The notes under the pieces: model-generated
Told to the model about the DNA's origin: nothing
Seen by the model: only the letters and a program-made list of their open reading frames with translations
Databases searched by the model: none
Translations under genes and position numbers: made by a program
Origin: Octopus vulgaris
Taxonomy: Eukaryota
DNA: 64,000 nt
Assembly: GCA_951406725.2 (NCBI GenBank)
Contig: OX597821.1
Span: 72,664,001 to 72,728,000 of the forward strand
Direction of reading: 5' to 3'
Part shown: positions 3,002 to 63,447 of the stretch, one piece after another
Layout of the letters: every line of letters begins with the position of its first letter
Numbering within the stretch: position 1 is the first letter of the stretch

Positions 3002-3510
3002 CTGGAAGTTAAAATGTAAAAACATGAAAATAAAAAAGTTATTTACTTTGGAATCATACAATGTCAAAATGTCTGATAAAAGAATTAGAAAACTTTTTGT
3101 TCTCTTTTAATTGGTTTACATTACACAAAAGTGAAACAAAAAGGACTTGAGGTTCACCTGTGAACCCCTTATATTTCAGATATATCAATGACTTTGGTCA
3201 CTTAGTGTCCACTGTGGAAAACTGCTGACTGTGGTAGTGGACACATAGGCATTGGATGCAGAGGAAGTGAAAAAATTGGCAAAAAAATTAAGAGAACATG
3301 TCCTGCCAGGTGTGTAACGTTTATGTGTATGAGCAAAGTGGTTAAGAGAAACTGAGAGAAAAACCAGGTGTAAAAGTAATTAGATGTAATGTACAGGTGA
3401 GATGACTGAATTATAAAGTGCAACAGATGTGTAATGTGTGTGACTGATGTCAGGTGAAGAAGTGTCAGGAGATCCGAGTGGGAAGGAAACTGTTTTTTTG
3501 TTTTTTCGTT

Positions 3511-40339: not shown

Positions 40340-41766
40340 TGTGTGTGTGTGTGTGTGTGTACGTAAATGTAATTCACAAATAGTCCTAATGAGAGAAATG
40401 TATCATCACTAGTTTCAAGGTGTGTGTGTTAATATTAACAGCATTTATCTCACAGAAGGCAATCTGAAAGGATATCTATTTCTATCTCAATAATGCCCCC
40501 CACCCTCTTGATCCTCCTCCATCAAACACACACACACACACACACTAAATCAGAGATTAGAATGAACATTGATGCAGTGAGATGGAGTCTTGATAACAGA
40601 CACATTCATATTAACACATACAGACAGCCACAAGAACACACACAAATGTGAAAAAGAGGATATGAAAGATTTGTCAAACGATAATCTGTTAAAGCTACAT
40701 CAATTGAGGTTAGTTTGCTTAAAGAACATCAGGTTTTTTTTTTCTGTTTTTTTTTTTTTCGAAGAGATATTTCCAAATTTATTTTTCGCATCCATTAAAA
40801 GAGAATTGAAACAAAACAAACGGTTGTTAGTCAAGCTGATTATTATAGATAAAGAGACATTAGGAAAAGAAGTCGTCATGAGAACCAGTAAAAGTTAACG
40901 AATGGTGTGCACCAGAATGAATCAGAAGAGTCTTTTATTGAGTGAGGTTGTGGTTGTTGTTTAGGCTCAGATCAAACAGACAGACGATCGGCTGCCATCT
41001 TGTTCTTTTTTAAATCATCGTTTCATTAACATTTGCATCACTAATTCTCTTTTAAAAGGTGTGAAGGTTATAACTTCACATTTTACCATTGTTTTGAAAA
41101 TATGGAATAGCATTTTAATATCTGCAGGAACTTGCCATCCAATAATGATCCTGAAGAATGTATAGACATCATATCACTGCACGCCTGTCTCTTGTGAATT
41201 TGTGATGATATACCATCACAGTAAGGCAGCGAGCTGGCAGAAACATTAGCATGCCGGGTGATATGCTTAGTGATATTTCATCTGTCTTTACGTTTTGAGT
41301 TCAAATTCCGCTGAGGTCGACTTTGCCTTTCGTCCTTTCGGCACTAATTGATAACTTCAAAATTGAAAGGGAGGAAGACATAAAAAGGAGATCTTGTATA
41401 TTCCCCATTTATAAAGAGTTGTGAAAACAGCCCTGGGGATGGAGGGGGTCGCCCCTAACCCCTAATTTTTTATATATATATTTTTCCAAACTAAAAATGT
41501 CAATTAAAAAAAAATTAAATTAAAATCATCTTGTAAATATAAAAAAGAAATACATTCTTTCCCCACAGACTAATAACAGTTAAGTTATATATTTTTTCCA
41601 ACTAATTTTATTGTATTTTATAGTAGATTATTTTAATTGCTTAAATTATTTTATTGGAAGTAACTTTCTATGTGTATTCCATACAATAAGGTTATCCTAA
41701 AAGAGGAGTTGTTCTATTGGTAAAATCCCAAATTTGTAATAATATTATATAGCCAAAGATAAGCCC

Positions 41767-43005
41767 TTGTACCTGGCTTTTGTTGACTTGGAGAAAGCCT
41801 TTGACAGGGTCCCCCGATCCCTTATCTGGTGGTCAATGAGGAAACTAGGGATAGAAGAATGGTTGGTGAGAGCTGTGCAAGCTATGTACAGAGACGCTGC
41901 TAGTAAGGTGAGGGTTGGCAACGGGTACAGTGAAGAATTCCGGGTAGAGGTTGGGGTCCACCAAGGTTCAGTCCTCAGTCCCCTCCTATTTATCATAGTC
42001 CTCCAGGCAATAACGGAGGAATTCAAGACAGGTTGCCCCTGGGAGCTCCTCTATGCTGACGACCTTGCTCTAATTGCTGAGACACTATCAGAACTGGAGG
42101 AGAAGTTTCAGGTGTGGAAACAAGGTTTAGAATCAAAGGGCCTTAGAATCAACCTAGCCAAAACCAAAGTCCTAATAAGTAGGAAGGTAGATCAATCACA
42201 AACGCCTTCAGGTAGATGGCCCTGCTCGATCTGTAAAAAAGGTGTAGGTAGAAACTCTATAAGATGCACCAAGTGTAAGCTATGGACACATAAGAGGTGC
42301 AGCAATGTCAAAGGAAGGCTAACTAGGAAAATAGTTTTTGTCTGTGGCAAATGCTCTGGAGCAATAAACACTGGAAATGTGCAGAGACCAACTTCTGCCA
42401 CGTTCCAGGGAGACAAACTAGAAGTAGTTGATAGCTTCCGCTACCTAGGAGACCAAGTCAGTAGCGGGGGTGGGTGTGCTGAAAGTGTAACTGCTAGAGT
42501 AAGAATAGCCTGGGCAAAGTTTAGAGAGCTCTTACCCCTGCTGGTGACAAAAGGCCTCTCGCTCAGAGTAAAAGGCAGACTGTATGATGCATGTGTACGT
42601 ACAGCCATGCTACATGGTAGTGAAACATGGGCCGTGACTGCTGAGGATATGCGTAAGCTCGCAAGAAATGAAGCCAGTATGCTCCGATGGATGTGTAATG
42701 TCAGTGTTCATAATCGTCAGAGTGTAAGTTCCTTGAGAGAAAAGTTGAACCTAAGAAGCGTCAGTTGTGGTGTGCAAGAGAGACGGCTGCGCTGGTATGG
42801 TCATGTGACGAGAAAGGCTGAAGATAGTTGTGTGCAAAAGTGCTACACCCTAGCAGTTGAGGGAACCTGTGGAAGAGGTAGACCCAGGAAAACCTGGGAC
42901 GAGGTGGTGAAGCACGACCTTCGAACTTTAGGTCTCACTAAGGAAATGTCTAGAGACCGAGACCTATGGAAGTATGCTGTGCGTGAGAAGACCTGGCAAG
43001 ACTAG
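41767..43005 (+). CDS. RTE LINE reverse transcriptase (5'-truncated, no true start) with an inserted PHD-type zinc finger
   Basis: FVDLEKAFD, GVHQGSVLSPLLF, LLYADD (YADD at 42052-42063), FRYLG, HGSETW, RRLRWYGHV, GRGRPRKTW. C4HC3 cluster at 42223-42354. Confidence 0.92.
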   Translation: MYLAFVDLEKAFDRVPRSLIWWSMRKLGIEEWLVRAVQAMYRDAASKVRVGNGYSEEFRVEVGVHQGSVLSPLLFIIVLQAITEEFKTGCPWELLYADDLALIAETLSELEEKFQVWKQGLESKGLRINLAKTKVLISRKVDQSQTPSGRWPCSICKKGVGRNSIRCTKCKLWTHKRCSNVKGRLTRKIVFVCGKCSGAINTGNVQRPTSATFQGDKLEVVDSFRYLGDQVSSGGGCAESVTARVRIAWAKFRELLPLLVTKGLSLRVKGRLYDACVRTAMLHGSETWAVTAEDMRKLARNEASMLRWMCNVSVHNRQSVSSLREKLNLRSVSCGVQERRLRWYGHVTRKAEDSCVQKCYTLAVEGTCGRGRPRKTWDEVVKHDLRTLGLTKEMSRDRDLWKYAVREKTWQD

Positions 43006-50602: not shown

Positions 50603-50950
50603 GAGGAGTGGCCCTGGCAAAAAGTTTGCTTTCCAATCACATGGTTCCTGGTTCAGACCCACTTTGTGGCACATTGGGGCAGGAGTCTTCTACTATAGCC
50701 TCAGACCAACTAAAGCCTTGTGAATGGATTTGGTAGACAGAAACTGAAAGAAGCCTGTTTGTATATGTATGTGTCTGTTACCCACCACCACTTGGTAACC
50801 AGTGTTGGTGTGTTTACGTCACCATAATTTAGTGCTTCAGCAAAAGGACCAAGAGAATAAATGCCAAGCTTTTAAAAAAAAGTACTGGAGTCAATTCATT
50901 TAATTAAAATTCTTCAATACAATGCCCCAGCATGAAATAAGTAAAAGACA
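50603..50950 (+). mobile_element. SINE family A
   Basis: Head and body match. Confidence 0.75.
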
Positions 50951-57600: not shown

Positions 57601-57908
57601 CCTAACTCATCGTAAAGTCAATACCACCATGACTGATATCCAATCTACAGTGGAGAAGGCTAGCCACTGGATTTGGTTAAAAAGAGACGATGAGCGATGG
57701 CTAGAAGTATATTGAGTTCATCATAACTAGCTGATCTAGCAAGCGGGGCCTCATATCAGTGAGGGGGCCGGTGCGCATTGATGCCGTCGAGAGGTAGGCC
57801 CCGAAACGGCGCGCATTCTCTCCTGATGACCCCATACACTTGCTAGCTTCCGATATACGGAGCTTTTAACTGGTAGCACTTGCATGTGCAAGTTGTTTGC
57901 AAGATATC
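57601..57908 (+). repeat. 5' copy of the direct terminal repeat (last ~38 codons plus 3' UTR)
   Basis: Base-by-base comparison with 61337-61645. Confidence 0.97.
57736..57846 (+). ncRNA. Candidate non-circularly permuted hammerhead ribozyme (copy 1)
   Basis: GCCGUC 57783-88, GAGAG 57789-93, AGGCCCC-GAAACGGC 57796-810, CUCUC-CUGAUGA 57818-29. Upstream GGGGCCU 57745-51 is complementary to the strand before GAAA. Confidence 0.62.
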
Positions 57909-57937
57909 TAAGACCTTGTGGTAGGTAACCACTGACA

Positions 57938-58033
57938 AACCGGAAAGACGGTTAGGCATCTTGGAAAGACAAGAGGACTGCTCGGAAAGACCAGCGGACA
58001 ATAGGAAAGACTATCGACACCAGGAAAGACTGG
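57938..58033 (+). other. Array of five RNA hairpins with an invariant GAAAGA loop in the element 5' UTR
   Basis: AACCG/CGGTT, TCTTG/CAAGA, GCTCG/CCAGC, ATAG/CTAT and CCAG/CTGG each flank GAAAGA; period 19-21 nt. Confidence 0.85.
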
Positions 58034-58175
58034 CGGAGGCTACGGACTTACGATCCTCGCCTCTGTATTTTATTGTAACAGACATAACAGGAAAAGACAG
58101 CCCCATGATTGACCGAGAGGGGGAGTCGAGAATCAATCAAACCCAGTCAGCACGGAAACGACCTTTGAAACGAAC

Positions 58176-61100
58176 ATGATTATTCATTCGAACAGCGGAC
58201 GAAATGCAAACAACTTTGGATGCAAGCTGTGCTATAGAACCTTTGCAACTGAGAGAGGCTTGAAGATACATCAGGGAAAGACTTGTGAGAAGAGGACAGA
58301 GCAGTGTGGATCGTCAGATCGTAAAACACGTGGCAAATCATCCCCGGACTCAAACCACAGCGGATCGATAAATGCTACAGCACAGAACTCTTCACGTGAA
58401 GAAACTACAAGTCATGAAACTGGTGCATCGGATAATACTCAGAGGAAACCGAGGGTTTTGTGGCCTGCTGCTAATGAGAAAGTGAAATATAAAGAGTTTG
58501 AAAACAAGGTTTGTCGGACTCTTTATAAAATGACAGGCTCTACAGTGGAAAAACTGGGAAAATTATCAAGCTCAATATACGATGTAGCAAGAGATTTATT
58601 TGGAATAAAAGAGAATATCCGACTAGAGAAAGGAAAGTGTGGACCAAGCAGGAGGATCAGAAAAATGCAGCAGTTGAGGAAGGAAAAGTCCGACTTAAGA
58701 AAGAGATGGAGATGTGCTGCACTAGATGAGAAACCTGGCCTTGCGTTGCTGTATAACGATTTGAAGAGGAAATGTCGTTATGTGCAACGACATATTCGCC
58801 GATATGAGCGTCGAAAAGAAAGTAAAAGGACTCGAGGGCAGTTTCTGAAGGACCCGTACGGGTTTACTAAGAAGCTGTTCACTGAGCCGAAGAGTGGTAC
58901 TTTATCGTGCACTAAAGAAGAATTGGATGCTCATATCAAGGAAACCTACAGCGATCCGCACCATAATCAGCCGCTGCCATCTCTACATGGGCTAAATCAT
59001 CTCTCAGGACCTGATATCGAATTCCAGATTGGGGACATCAGGGAGAGAGAGGTGAATGACTTCGTAAGAAAAGCTAGAGCGAAGAGTGCCCCAGGAGGTG
59101 ATGGCGTCTCATATAAAGTCTACAAATACTGCAATCGTCTGCGAAAGAAGCTCTTCGTCCTAATCCGACAACTGTGGCGCGAGGAGACTATAGTAGAGGA
59201 TTGGTGTAAGGCAGAAGGTATATACCTGCCGAAAGAGGCCAATGCAAAGACCATAAAACAGTTTAGGCCGATATCCTTATTGAATGTGGAAGGCAAGATC
59301 TTTATGGGAATTCTGTCGAGGAGAACAGTGACATATTTACAGAGTAACGGATATGTTGATGAATCTGTTCAAAAGGCCGGAATCCCCGGGATCCCTGGAT
59401 GCGTTGAACACTGTTTTTCGATTTGGAAAGCGATTCAGGATGCCAAACAGAACAAGAAAAGTCTGAACGTGGTATGGCTCGACCTAGCTAACGCGTATGG
59501 TTCAGTGCCACACAAATTACTAATAACAGCCATGGACCACTTCCACATTCCTGACAAAGTGATCAAAATAATGAGGATGTACTATGAAAGTTTCGAAATG
59601 AGGTTTACAACTGGAAGTTTTACAACAAATTGGCACCGATTGGAGGTTGGCATTGCTGCTGGCTGTACAATATCTGTCACGTGGTTTATCTTAGTCATGG
59701 AGTTGATTTTGAAAGGTGTAGATTTTTCGGAACAAATCGCCCATGTACAATCGCCTAAGAAAGCCTTCATGGATGACGTGACACTTCTAGCTACAGATAA
59801 ACAAATCATGCAGAATGCCCTTTTGAGATTAGACGAACGTGTAAGGTGGTCAAGGATGCGATTTAGAGCAAAAAAGTCGCGTAGTCTGACATTTGTTAAG
59901 GGAGTGCAGAAAGAATTTAAATTTCGAATATCGGAAGAAAGCATTCCAACAGTCAAGGAAGAGCCCGTCAAGAGCTTGGGACGAGTATACGCTGGAACAT
60001 TGTCAGATAGAAGTCGTGGGATTGAAATTATGAAACAGGCCGAGGCTGGGTTATCAGCGATTGATGTTTCGAAGTTACCAGGTAAATATAAAATTTGGTG
60101 CTTGCAGTTCGGCCTGTACCCGCGACTTGCGTGGCCACTTTTAATATACGAAGTAGCATTGTCACGAGTTGAAAAGATCGAACAAAAATGTAATGTGTTC
60201 ATTAGAAAGTGGCTAGGTCTACCTCGTATGTTGAACAGCTCAGCTCTTTATCGTAAAAGAGGTTCGTTGCAGTTACCAATAGCATCAATAGTCGAAATAT
60301 ATAAGTTGGGGAAGATACGGACGGTCATGATGCTGAGAGAATCGAAGGATATGGAAATCAGGCGTAACCCACCAGAGGTGAAAACAGCCAGGAAGTGGAA
60401 AGCAGAAGCAGAAACTGACAACATCTTGTCTTCTCTTACACACAGAGATATGGTGGGAGCAACGCAGAACCATCGGAAAGGATTTGGTTTTGGCGCGGAT
60501 CAGTTCAGACCGTTTGCAAGCATGATGCCGTGTGAACGCAGATCTGTTGTTAGCAACAGCGTCAAAACAAGAGAAGCAGAGAGAAGAGAGCTTCATTTGA
60601 TCCGATGTGTTCATCAAGGTCAGATGACGAGATGGGAAGAACATGTTGTTGAGAGGAAGATAAGTTGGGATGAGATGTGGAAGTGGACAACATCTCGGCT
60701 GAGTTTCCTGATTCGTTCATCTTATGATGTTTTGCCATCACCTACGAATCTAGTAAGATGGAACGTCTTAGAGAATGACGTCTGCAAATGTGGAAAAGTC
60801 GGTACACTAAAACATATTCTTTCCAACTGTTCGTTAGCATTGAACAGGTACACATGGAGGCACAACTTGGTCCTTAAGGTTATCTTCAATGCTATAAAGA
60901 ATCAAATTCATCTCAACAACACTGAGGAAAAATCGTTAAAAGTACCATCAAGAGAGTTCATTACCTTCGTGCGACCAGGTCAGCAGATCCGTTTCAAGAA
61001 GAAGACCAAGAAACTTCCTGAGAAAAATGAAAAGTGGAACGACTATTGGGAGGTAACTGCAGATTTACCTGGGTGCCAGGTTTTCTTTCCCATCCCAGTT

Positions 61101-61451
61101 TCGAAAAAACCAGATATTTTGATGTGGTGTGAAAGAAAGAAAGTTTTAAATATAGTCGAGCTAACGGTTCCTCACGAAGATAATATGGACGCCGCTCGAG
61201 CTCGAAAATTAAACTGTTATGAAAACCTCCTCGAGGAATATGAAGACGCAGGCTGGAAAGCGGAACATTTTCCTATCGAAGTCGGATGTAGAGGGTTTGT
61301 AGGACACAGCGTGAGACGACTGTTGTTATCGTTAGGCCTAACTCATCGTAAAGTCAATACCACCATGACTGATATCCAATCTACAGTGGAGAAGGCTAGC
61401 CACTGGATTTGGTTAAAAAGAGACGATGAGCGATGGCTAGAAGTATATTGA
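58176..61451 (+). CDS. Non-LTR retrotransposon protein: N-terminal zinc finger, reverse transcriptase, CCHC knuckle, restriction-like endonuclease (HERO-like)
   Basis: CKLC..GLKIHQGKTC; KSAPGGDG, FRPISLLN, WLDLANAYGSVPH, GIAAGCTIS, AFMDD (FMDD at 59766-59777); CKC..HILSNC..RYTWRHN; KPDIL..VELTVP; PIEVGCRGF. Confidence 0.95.
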   Translation: MIIHSNSGRNANNFGCKLCYRTFATERGLKIHQGKTCEKRTEQCGSSDRKTRGKSSPDSNHSGSINATAQNSSREETTSHETGASDNTQRKPRVLWPAANEKVKYKEFENKVCRTLYKMTGSTVEKLGKLSSSIYDVARDLFGIKENIRLEKGKCGPSRRIRKMQQLRKEKSDLRKRWRCAALDEKPGLALLYNDLKRKCRYVQRHIRRYERRKESKRTRGQFLKDPYGFTKKLFTEPKSGTLSCTKEELDAHIKETYSDPHHNQPLPSLHGLNHLSGPDIEFQIGDIREREVNDFVRKARAKSAPGGDGVSYKVYKYCNRLRKKLFVLIRQLWREETIVEDWCKAEGIYLPKEANAKTIKQFRPISLLNVEGKIFMGILSRRTVTYLQSNGYVDESVQKAGIPGIPGCVEHCFSIWKAIQDAKQNKKSLNVVWLDLANAYGSVPHKLLITAMDHFHIPDKVIKIMRMYYESFEMRFTTGSFTTNWHRLEVGIAAGCTISVTWFILVMELILKGVDFSEQIAHVQSPKKAFMDDVTLLATDKQIMQNALLRLDERVRWSRMRFRAKKSRSLTFVKGVQKEFKFRISEESIPTVKEEPVKSLGRVYAGTLSDRSRGIEIMKQAEAGLSAIDVSKLPGKYKIWCLQFGLYPRLAWPLLIYEVALSRVEKIEQKCNVFIRKWLGLPRMLNSSALYRKRGSLQLPIASIVEIYKLGKIRTVMMLRESKDMEIRRNPPEVKTARKWKAEAETDNILSSLTHRDMVGATQNHRKGFGFGADQFRPFASMMPCERRSVVSNSVKTREAERRELHLIRCVHQGQMTRWEEHVVERKISWDEMWKWTTSRLSFLIRSSYDVLPSPTNLVRWNVLENDVCKCGKVGTLKHILSNCSLALNRYTWRHNLVLKVIFNAIKNQIHLNNTEEKSLKVPSREFITFVRPGQQIRFKKKTKKLPEKNEKWNDYWEVTADLPGCQVFFPIPVSKKPDILMWCERKKVLNIVELTVPHEDNMDAARARKLNCYENLLEEYEDAGWKAEHFPIEVGCRGFVGHSVRRLLLSLGLTHRKVNTTMTDIQSTVEKASHWIWLKRDDERWLEVY

Positions 61452-61645
61452 GTTCATCATAACCAGCTGATCTAGCAAGCGGGGCCTCATATCAGTGAGG
61501 GGGGCCGGTGCGCATTGATGCCGTCGAGAGGTAGGCCCCGAAACGGCGCGCATTCTCTCCTGATGACCCCATACACTTGCTAGCTTCCGATATACGGAGC
61601 TTTTAACTGGTAGCACTTGCATGTGCAAGTTGTTTGCAAGATATC
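61337..61645 (+). repeat. 3' copy of the direct terminal repeat
   Basis: Matches 57601-57908. Confidence 0.97.
61472..61583 (+). ncRNA. Candidate non-circularly permuted hammerhead ribozyme (copy 2, 3' UTR)
   Basis: GCCGUC 61520-25, GAGAG 61526-30, GAAACGGC 61540-47, CUCUC-CUGAUGA 61555-66. Confidence 0.62.
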
Positions 61646-62725: not shown

Positions 62726-63084
62726 TGGTTCCAGGTTCAATCCCACTGCATGGCACCTTGGGCAAGTGCCTTCTACTATAGCGTTGGGCCGACCAAAGCC
62801 TTGTGAGTGGATTTGGTAGAGGGAAACTGAAAGAAGCCTATTGTATATATATATACATACATTATATATATATATATATACATTATATATATATATTAAA
62901 TATAAATATATATATATATATATATATTTAAATATAAATATATATATATATATAAATTAAATATAAATATATATTCCAGGTTCAATCCCACTGCATGGCA
63001 CCTTGGGCAAGTGCCTTCTACTATAGCGTTGGGCCGACCAAAGCCTTGTGAGTGGATTTGGTAGAGGGAAACTGAAAGAAGCCT

Positions 63085-63166
<82 letters not shown>

Positions 63167-63447
63167 TAAATTAAATATAAATATATATATATATATATAT
63201 ATAAATTAAATATAAATATATATGTATGTATTTGTATGCATGTGTGTGTATGTGTGTCTGTATTTGACCCCCACCATTGCTCGACATCAATGTTGGTGTA
63301 TTTATGTCCTTGTAACTTAGCAGTTCTGCAAAAGCGACTGATAGCATAAGTACTAGACTTACAAAGAATAAGTCCTGGGGTCTATTTGTTCGACTAAAAG
63401 TGGTGCTCCAGCATGGCCACAGTCAAATGACTGAAACAAGTAAAAGA
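62726..63447 (+). mobile_element. SINE family A with a tandem duplication of its head and (AT)n
   Basis: TTCCAGGTTCAATCCCACTGC..GAAGCCTATTGT is identical at 62729 and 62974. Confidence 0.85.

Follow-up and report, generated by a model that had tools for sequence, protein, structure and literature searches.

A HERO-type retrotransposon of Octopus vulgaris with a predicted hammerhead permutation in its repeats and a possible circular RNA template

The 64,000-nucleotide stretch of Octopus vulgaris DNA studied here (assembly GCA_951406725.2, contig OX597821.1, positions 72,664,001 to 72,728,000; hereafter the window) contains at 57601-61645 a young HERO-type retrotransposon with a unit of 3737 nt, which encodes a reverse transcriptase (RT) together with a restriction-like endonuclease (RLE). 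Its open reading frame (ORF) lies between two direct repeats, each harbouring a predicted ribozyme, and a preliminary description of the window proposed replication through a circular RNA. We put the probability at about 65% that the transcript is cleaved twice, that the released monomer is ligated to a circle, and that target-primed reverse transcription (TPRT) starts internally on this circle and proceeds for more than one lap. The arrangement seen in the window is confirmed and is general to the family. The parts of the element are, all on the + strand:

57601..57908: upstream repeat, the predicted product of second-lap cDNA synthesis; final 108 nt of the ORF including its stop, followed by the 3' untranslated region (UTR); left edge copy-specific
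61337..61645: downstream repeat, ORF end plus 3' UTR
57789..61525: putative cut-to-cut unit, 3737 nt, predicted linear monomer and circle
57899..57915: fixed junction GATATC/TAAGACC (slash at the joint); the templated 3' end of new insertions is position -1; predicted internal priming site
57939..58033: five hairpins whose loops are of the GAAAGA type and whose stems vary; relatives have the same loops on other stems
58101..58139: predicted pseudoknot at the ORF start, CCCC/GGGG plus TGATTGA/TCAATCA; stem 2 covaries
58113..61451: single ORF, 1112 aa from stop to stop; N-terminal zinc-finger-like motif, RT, CCHC-like motif, RLE

The repeats 57601-57908 and 61337-61645 are offset by 3736/3737 nt, and 2 of 303 compared columns differ (one T/C, one G in a G run), in agreement with the 308/309-bp direct repeats differing at two positions that had been described. 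The distance between the GUC ends at 57788 and 61525 was recomputed and is again 3737 nt. The element has no poly(A) tail, and no convincing target site duplication (TSD) was found in 16 loci, where the only matches were one of 12 bp inside a microsatellite and five of 4 bp; both absences had been noted before.

Junction, left edges and cut site in the genomic copies

Copies of the family were searched in 2.8 Gb of genome sequence (227 contigs). A query with the 3' end found 2318 candidate places and a junction-free query with the 5' UTR found 68, and the best 40 of each were scored. Thirty-six of the best 40 of the 68 junction-free matches run upstream into the element's own 3' end, the other four are truncated inside the 5' UTR, and none of the 40 starts at unit position 1. 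The expectation that full-length copies always carry an upstream duplicate is borne out, as no free-standing full-length copy occurs among these 40. The left edges of the duplicates vary, as anticipated, and range from -6 to -1975, the shortest extensions past the junction among the 36 copies being ~7 and ~14 nt. The joint itself is fixed as proposed: 19 of 19 junctions found with an exact pattern permitting 0-6 extra bases have no inserted base. Because the 5'-UTR matches run into the element's own 3' end, none starts at unit position 1 and the left edges vary, the repeats are not long terminal repeats (LTRs). To call them LTR-like was a misnomer; in contrast to LTR retrotransposons the family has neither terminal repeats of fixed length nor, in the 16 loci, convincing TSDs, and of the domains expected of such elements, integrase, RNase H and protease included, its protein shows only RVT_1 in Pfam.

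The lengths of 35 duplicates were listed by hand, excluding three loci that were unclear and one member of a segmental-duplicate pair. Twenty-eight reach beyond the predicted cut (-119) and none ends at it, and 20 measure at least 190 nt. The lengths of the 28 match those of first-lap truncations (medians 305 vs 330, Kolmogorov-Smirnov p 0.36). The longest duplicates, of 1675 and 1975 nt, belong to the youngest copies, and the same build is found in copies which are 22% diverged. Divergence is equal in both repeats of a locus (Spearman 0.96, 22 loci), and in two loci (L097, L104) rare variants are common to both repeats, with the own partner as nearest match. Among 44 loci no shared left flank and no 5' transduction was found. 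Of 60 copies picked through an internal motif, 58 have a 3' end whose position could be assigned; templated sequence extends to ..GCAAGA(T/C)AT, after which N-T-A follows. This N-T-A is the insertion target, and 11 of the 58 insertions lie in (TA)n.

At the cut site, exact patterns find 591 copies with C before GAGAGG and 57 with another base; most of 12 inspected non-C copies represent CpG decay, and three start exactly at the site. A truncation pattern covering -12 to +26 detected 64 places, of which 28 with element sequence upstream were set aside. Twelve of the 36 clean truncations start at +1, directly after GUC^, while the other 37 positions have a mean of 0.65 truncations and a maximum of five, at -12 (Poisson p ~1e-9 to 1e-11). 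The cut predicted after GUC thus coincides with a pile-up of 5' ends. A T precedes 11 of the 12, and we read these copies as probable RT run-offs from a cleaved 5' end, an extra A having been appended. After correction for an estimated sensitivity of 0.57 they would number ~20. In comparison, 871 copies read through the cut site, none of them with 1-8 inserted or 1-5 deleted bases according to a gap pattern with positive control.

Some copies of ~1.1 kb are internally deleted (L039, L040, L044, L051, L122, L124, L127, L128, L130). Their joints cluster, connecting unit positions 680-825 to 3110-3400, the breakpoints differ per copy and some show microhomology; most of these copies also have the upstream duplicate. 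One insertion (L129) carries two different deletions. The clustering possibly reflects a long-range contact in the RNA; splicing was rejected as origin, since the joints have no GT..AG and differ by locus. Inverted element pieces are held by three insertions (L110, L117, L130).

A permuted hammerhead in each repeat

The predicted ribozymes, both on the + strand, are composed as follows:

57736..57846: permuted hammerhead, 5' copy; cleavage predicted after 57788; its G run has one base less than that of the 3' copy
61472..61583: permuted hammerhead, 3' copy
3' copy, upstream parts: x 61481-61484; hairpin 61485-61500; y 61501-61506; p1 61507-61512
3' copy, cut region: stem III/cut 61519-61525; stem I 61526-61530; y' with GAAAC 61534-61544
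3' copy, downstream parts: stem I' with CUGAUGA 61555-61566; x' 61567-61570

A set of hammerhead-core motifs had been recognized in each repeat. The core blocks are indeed present, but in the non-canonical order cleavage block, GAAAC block, CUGAUGA block (S-G-C), and the canonical stem II cannot form because C stands opposite C. Rfam gave no match at the ribozyme, and the minimum free energy z-score of the motif is only -0.47, single-strand folding being uninformative for a pseudoknotted motif. The comparison with relatives covers 80 metagenome loci with 31-69% protein identity, several of which belong to the same family. The S-G-C pattern has 34 matches in these loci, all on the sense strand, against 0, 0, 1, 0 and 0 in resampled controls; one of the 34 lies inside an ORF and is probably false. 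Thirty-one of the 38 relatives reaching the ORF end have the ribozyme, the remaining seven comprising two cut by the contig end, two with <200 nt and three without ribozyme.

Stems I and III covary, and their fifth pair, which was outside the search criteria, holds in 25 and 26 of 27 sequences. One of the 27 has the canonical 10.1-11.1 pair. Instead, two upstream strands, y and x, act as partners: y pairs with the bases preceding GAAA and x with those following CUGANGA, and the space between x and y is taken up exactly by a hairpin. This four-way-junction pairing occurs in 21 of 29 ribozymes and in 20 of 812 partner-swapped controls. All 21 of these 21 have G-C, corresponding to the usual G10.1-C11.1, as the pair adjoining GAAA, a helix joining stems I and II has at least 5 bp in 21 of 27 (a count without swapped control), and the invariant alignment columns are those of the hammerhead core. 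The ribozyme ends up ~120 nt before the priming site. Ribozymes of the hepatitis delta virus (HDV) type were considered for the 3' motif as well as for the pseudoknot at the ORF start and were dropped, as no conserved catalytic C was seen by eye.

The closest known form, going by excerpts of the paper, is the type-SGC hammerhead (Eckert et al. 2023, PMC10085705), a term which within the literature searched was found there alone. Common to both are the S-G-C order, a short linker from stem I to stem II, the helix joining these stems and all core nucleotides including G10.1-C11.1. They differ in that the type-SGC form builds stem II with the bases following CUGAnGA, in many cases skipping one bulged U, a pairing which is missing here in 26 of 27, and in that the chain is here opened between A9 and 10.1, where two extra helices form the four-way junction. 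Those excerpts assume that no more than one or two bases can be inserted between A9 and 10.1 and that such a four-way junction does not arise, and the alignment rows examined carry JGI environmental ids, none linked to a retrotransposon. On its pairing pattern the window ribozyme appears to be a new permutation, with the type-SGC topology reopened, and it is predicted to be self-cleaving.

No relatives were found in the collections of viral contigs and genome contigs. Ten metagenome contigs (L167, L168, L177, L191, L199, L203, L209, L211, L226, L227) are permuted or overlap at their ends; these could come from collapsed assemblies, but only where the junction exists. Two others are each a flanked partial tandem at a single locus, one with a 1680-bp duplicate that is 99.9% identical (L207) and one with a 37-bp duplicate (L179). 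Twelve contigs read from the ribozyme into the 5' UTR motifs, and the spacing from cut to pseudoknot is kept across the junction, with 283-334 nt in relatives and 325 nt in the window element. The GAAAGA hairpins and the ORF-start pseudoknot covary among relatives, most of which keep a PRGG frame through the pseudoknot; in the window copy a stop lies directly upstream. The pseudoknot is a candidate for a cap-independent translation start or a protein-binding site.

The G run at window 58114-58123 has five or six G among young copies, and the 6-G form, seen in L094, L095, L097 and contigs from sequencing runs guessed to be RNA, puts an upstream AUG in frame. This AUG was dropped as true start, since the 5-G form retains the PRGG frame kept by most relatives. 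In five relatives (L174, L175, L206, L228, L229) the ribozyme follows 0.7-2.5 kb after the ORF, implying units to ~6 kb; most of the 120 protein homologues listed are on contigs of 3.6-4.4 kb, about one unit.

Circular or linear template

In the mechanism we favour, a transcript entering from upstream would be cut at both ribozymes, and the 3737-nt monomer, with 5'-OH and cyclic phosphate, would be ligated by an RtcB-type ligase or by the ribozyme. RtcB circularises hammerhead-cut retrozyme monomers in vitro, as stated in excerpts of PMC7229834. The ORF would be translated without a cap, perhaps via the pseudoknot at its start. The endonuclease would then nick an AT-rich N-T-A target, and the RT would prime internally at ..GCAAGA(T/C)AT. 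Most cDNAs would stop early, full laps would carry on into the 3' region, and cDNAs passing ~175 nt would regenerate a second ribozyme. About 2% of the templates would be nicked at the site, where the RT would run off. The predictions concerning junction, left edges, duplicates and the pile-up of 5' ends have held; cleavage, ligation, cap-independent translation and templating by a circle are what we infer.

Full copies need either ligation or a jump at the cut, because the priming site is 120 nt from the 5' end of the cut-to-cut unit. An unligated monomer is the most probable of the alternatives, although we regard it as unlikely: the RT would cross a nick held shut by the ribozyme stems, or jump seamlessly to another monomer. 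The R2 RT can jump end to end between templates, run-off products at the cut do exist, clustered internal deletions with microhomology show that template switching occurs, and a metagenome locus (L202) joins two families. However, crossing or jumping would have to succeed in ~98% of cases with no indel in 871 crossings, and the extra T of the run-offs (11/12) is never seen inside read-throughs. Seamless read-through combined with extra-T run-offs favours ligation.

Somewhat less probable still is that an existing partial tandem is transcribed beyond unit length and that this RNA serves as template without being cleaved, similar to the Penelope element PAc, with a slow or regulatory ribozyme. 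Duplicates could then lose length but never gain it. The longest ones (1675 and 1975 nt) are nevertheless found in the youngest copies, which argues against a shrinking linear precursor. The retained build of copies 22% diverged, the 44 loci without shared left flanks or 5' transductions, and second-lap lengths that mirror first-lap lengths speak against it as well.

The RNA of an ordinary long interspersed nuclear element (LINE), with the duplicate arising from a second copy inserted at the 5' end of a full-length copy or from an RT jump there to a second RNA, is already largely refuted, and we give it little credence. The duplicate lengths are compatible with a fresh start as well, the N-T-A target resembles the junction, and L202 and the discordance of L091 are in its favour. 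Against it, none of the 36 copies that extend to the 5' edge is without the duplicate (best 40 of 68 matches), the ages of both repeats match, and the distance from cut to pseudoknot, which spans the junction, is conserved (325 nt in the window element, 283-334 nt in relatives); moreover it leaves unexplained a conserved ribozyme that would cut the template. Least probable is that only the upstream ribozyme acts and releases the 5' end of the RNA, as the 5' ribozyme of R2 does according to excerpts of PMC7650587, which is refuted by the duplicate lengths: duplicates of <=119 nt piling up at 119 would be expected, while 28 of 35 exceed this length and not one stops at 119.

Several observations weigh against a circular template. 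Cleavage and circle are read here from DNA footprints, not from RNA, and a ligated linear multimer would leave identical footprints. For a Penelope-like element the ribozyme is dispensable and unprocessed RNA is the main template in vitro, according to excerpts of PMC11167929. A same-template origin of both repeats is shown for two loci only (L097, L104), and in ~18 young or old loci the nearest match is other than the own partner repeat, a test whose power is low for the youngest and the oldest loci. The repeats of L091 differ in 11 of 1968 columns, with nine rare variants on one side, and L113, one of the 36 copies running on, has lost ~40 nt spanning the junction. Copies exceeding ~1.5 laps were not seen. 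Beyond the junction, matching is significant no further than +2, and it may reflect endonuclease preference. Among relatives, L170, L209 and L214 extend 343-582 nt after the ORF with no ribozyme match. L202 (3560-3824) has two families, ~70% identical, joined in head-to-tail arrangement at the junction or close to it; one circle does not explain this, and either an intermolecular switch, a tandem insertion or a misassembly would be required.

Sequencing runs taken, by a guess, to be RNA yielded contigs that span all 30 bins in both X1 and X3, with a single X3 contig crossing the junction; since contigs reveal neither ends nor strand nor circles, they were not used as evidence.

Protein, clade and relation to known elements

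The frame 58113-61448 is free of stops (1112 aa), and its protein contains RVT_1 (E 5e-19) as sole Pfam domain found, the RT motifs WLDLANAYGS and FMDD and the endonuclease motif PD..E..K. The ORF had been called intact. It is open, but a motif in the endonuclease region has Cys in the window copy and Arg in each of the five other young copies that were compared. The best matches, by sequence and also by fold of the AlphaFold model (mean pLDDT 84; E 5e-33, TM ~0.6), are R2 proteins, and TPRT by RT+RLE is common to R2 and the window element. R2 differs from the window element in being site-specific, with a 5' HDV-like ribozyme, a linear RNA and as a rule no partial tandem. Compared by eye with rows of HERO-1_BF, HEROTn, Utopia and R4, the RT motifs favour HERO; SLLNVEGK, QKAG.PG.PGC.EH, RMRFK..KSRSL, EPVKSLG, LPGK.K.W and RKWLG are common to the RT regions of the window element, HERO-1_BF and HEROTn (rows from the PMC7650587 supplement). 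Like HERO elements the window element has a single ORF with RT and a C-terminal RLE. Insertion of the family is mostly non-specific or microsatellite-biased, and HERO insertion is described as non-specific in an excerpt of PMC4640811.

Penelope-like elements are set apart by a GIY-YIG endonuclease and a telomerase-like RT, neither of which was found here. In excerpts of PMC11167929, PAc shares the partial tandem, the hammerhead in the repeat, the internal RT start and the AT-rich targets; those excerpts propose a multimer mRNA and contain no cut-site footprint. Retrozymes, as characterised in parts of PMC7229834, also have hammerhead-cut monomers, circularisation and a proposed circle-templated reverse transcription, steps that are likewise proposed for the window element. 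They are, however, small, non-coding and non-autonomous with type I/III ribozymes, whereas the window element encodes its own RT and endonuclease in an ORF of 1112 aa.

Elsewhere in the window, 41743-43002 holds a separate 420-aa open frame with RT-like motifs (LAFVDLEKAFDRV), by eye another non-LTR element, and a short interspersed repeat family lies between (TA)n runs in three copies (50646-50846, 62729-63334).

Zebulon, a fish RT+RLE element reportedly described by Bouneau in 2003, is said to have a partial tandem structure, and this architecture is probably already known. No report of a hammerhead or a circular intermediate in HERO or other RLE elements was found in the literature searched, most subscription papers and Repbase Reports being outside it; the form of the ribozyme, the cut-site footprint and the circle model appear new. 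Tentatively, at somewhat less than even odds, much of the HERO clade may consist of autonomous, protein-coding circular-RNA retroelements with a circle of 3.7-6 kb, a hammerhead permutation with four-way junction not previously described, cap-independent translation from a conserved pseudoknot and rolling-circle TPRT.

The circle model offers a testable mechanism for partial tandems, and the ribozyme appears to add to the hammerheads a new topology, strongly supported by covariation in nature. If the model is true, the family would be autonomous and of LINE type and would pass through a viroid-like stage as circular RNA. It would connect R2-type TPRT with retrozymes, and it would have solved the problem of 5'-end loss without LTRs. 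It would further provide a candidate for a large natural circle bearing an internal ribosome entry site, and an RT+RLE enzyme priming internally on circular RNA, which would be relevant to RNA-templated gene insertion.

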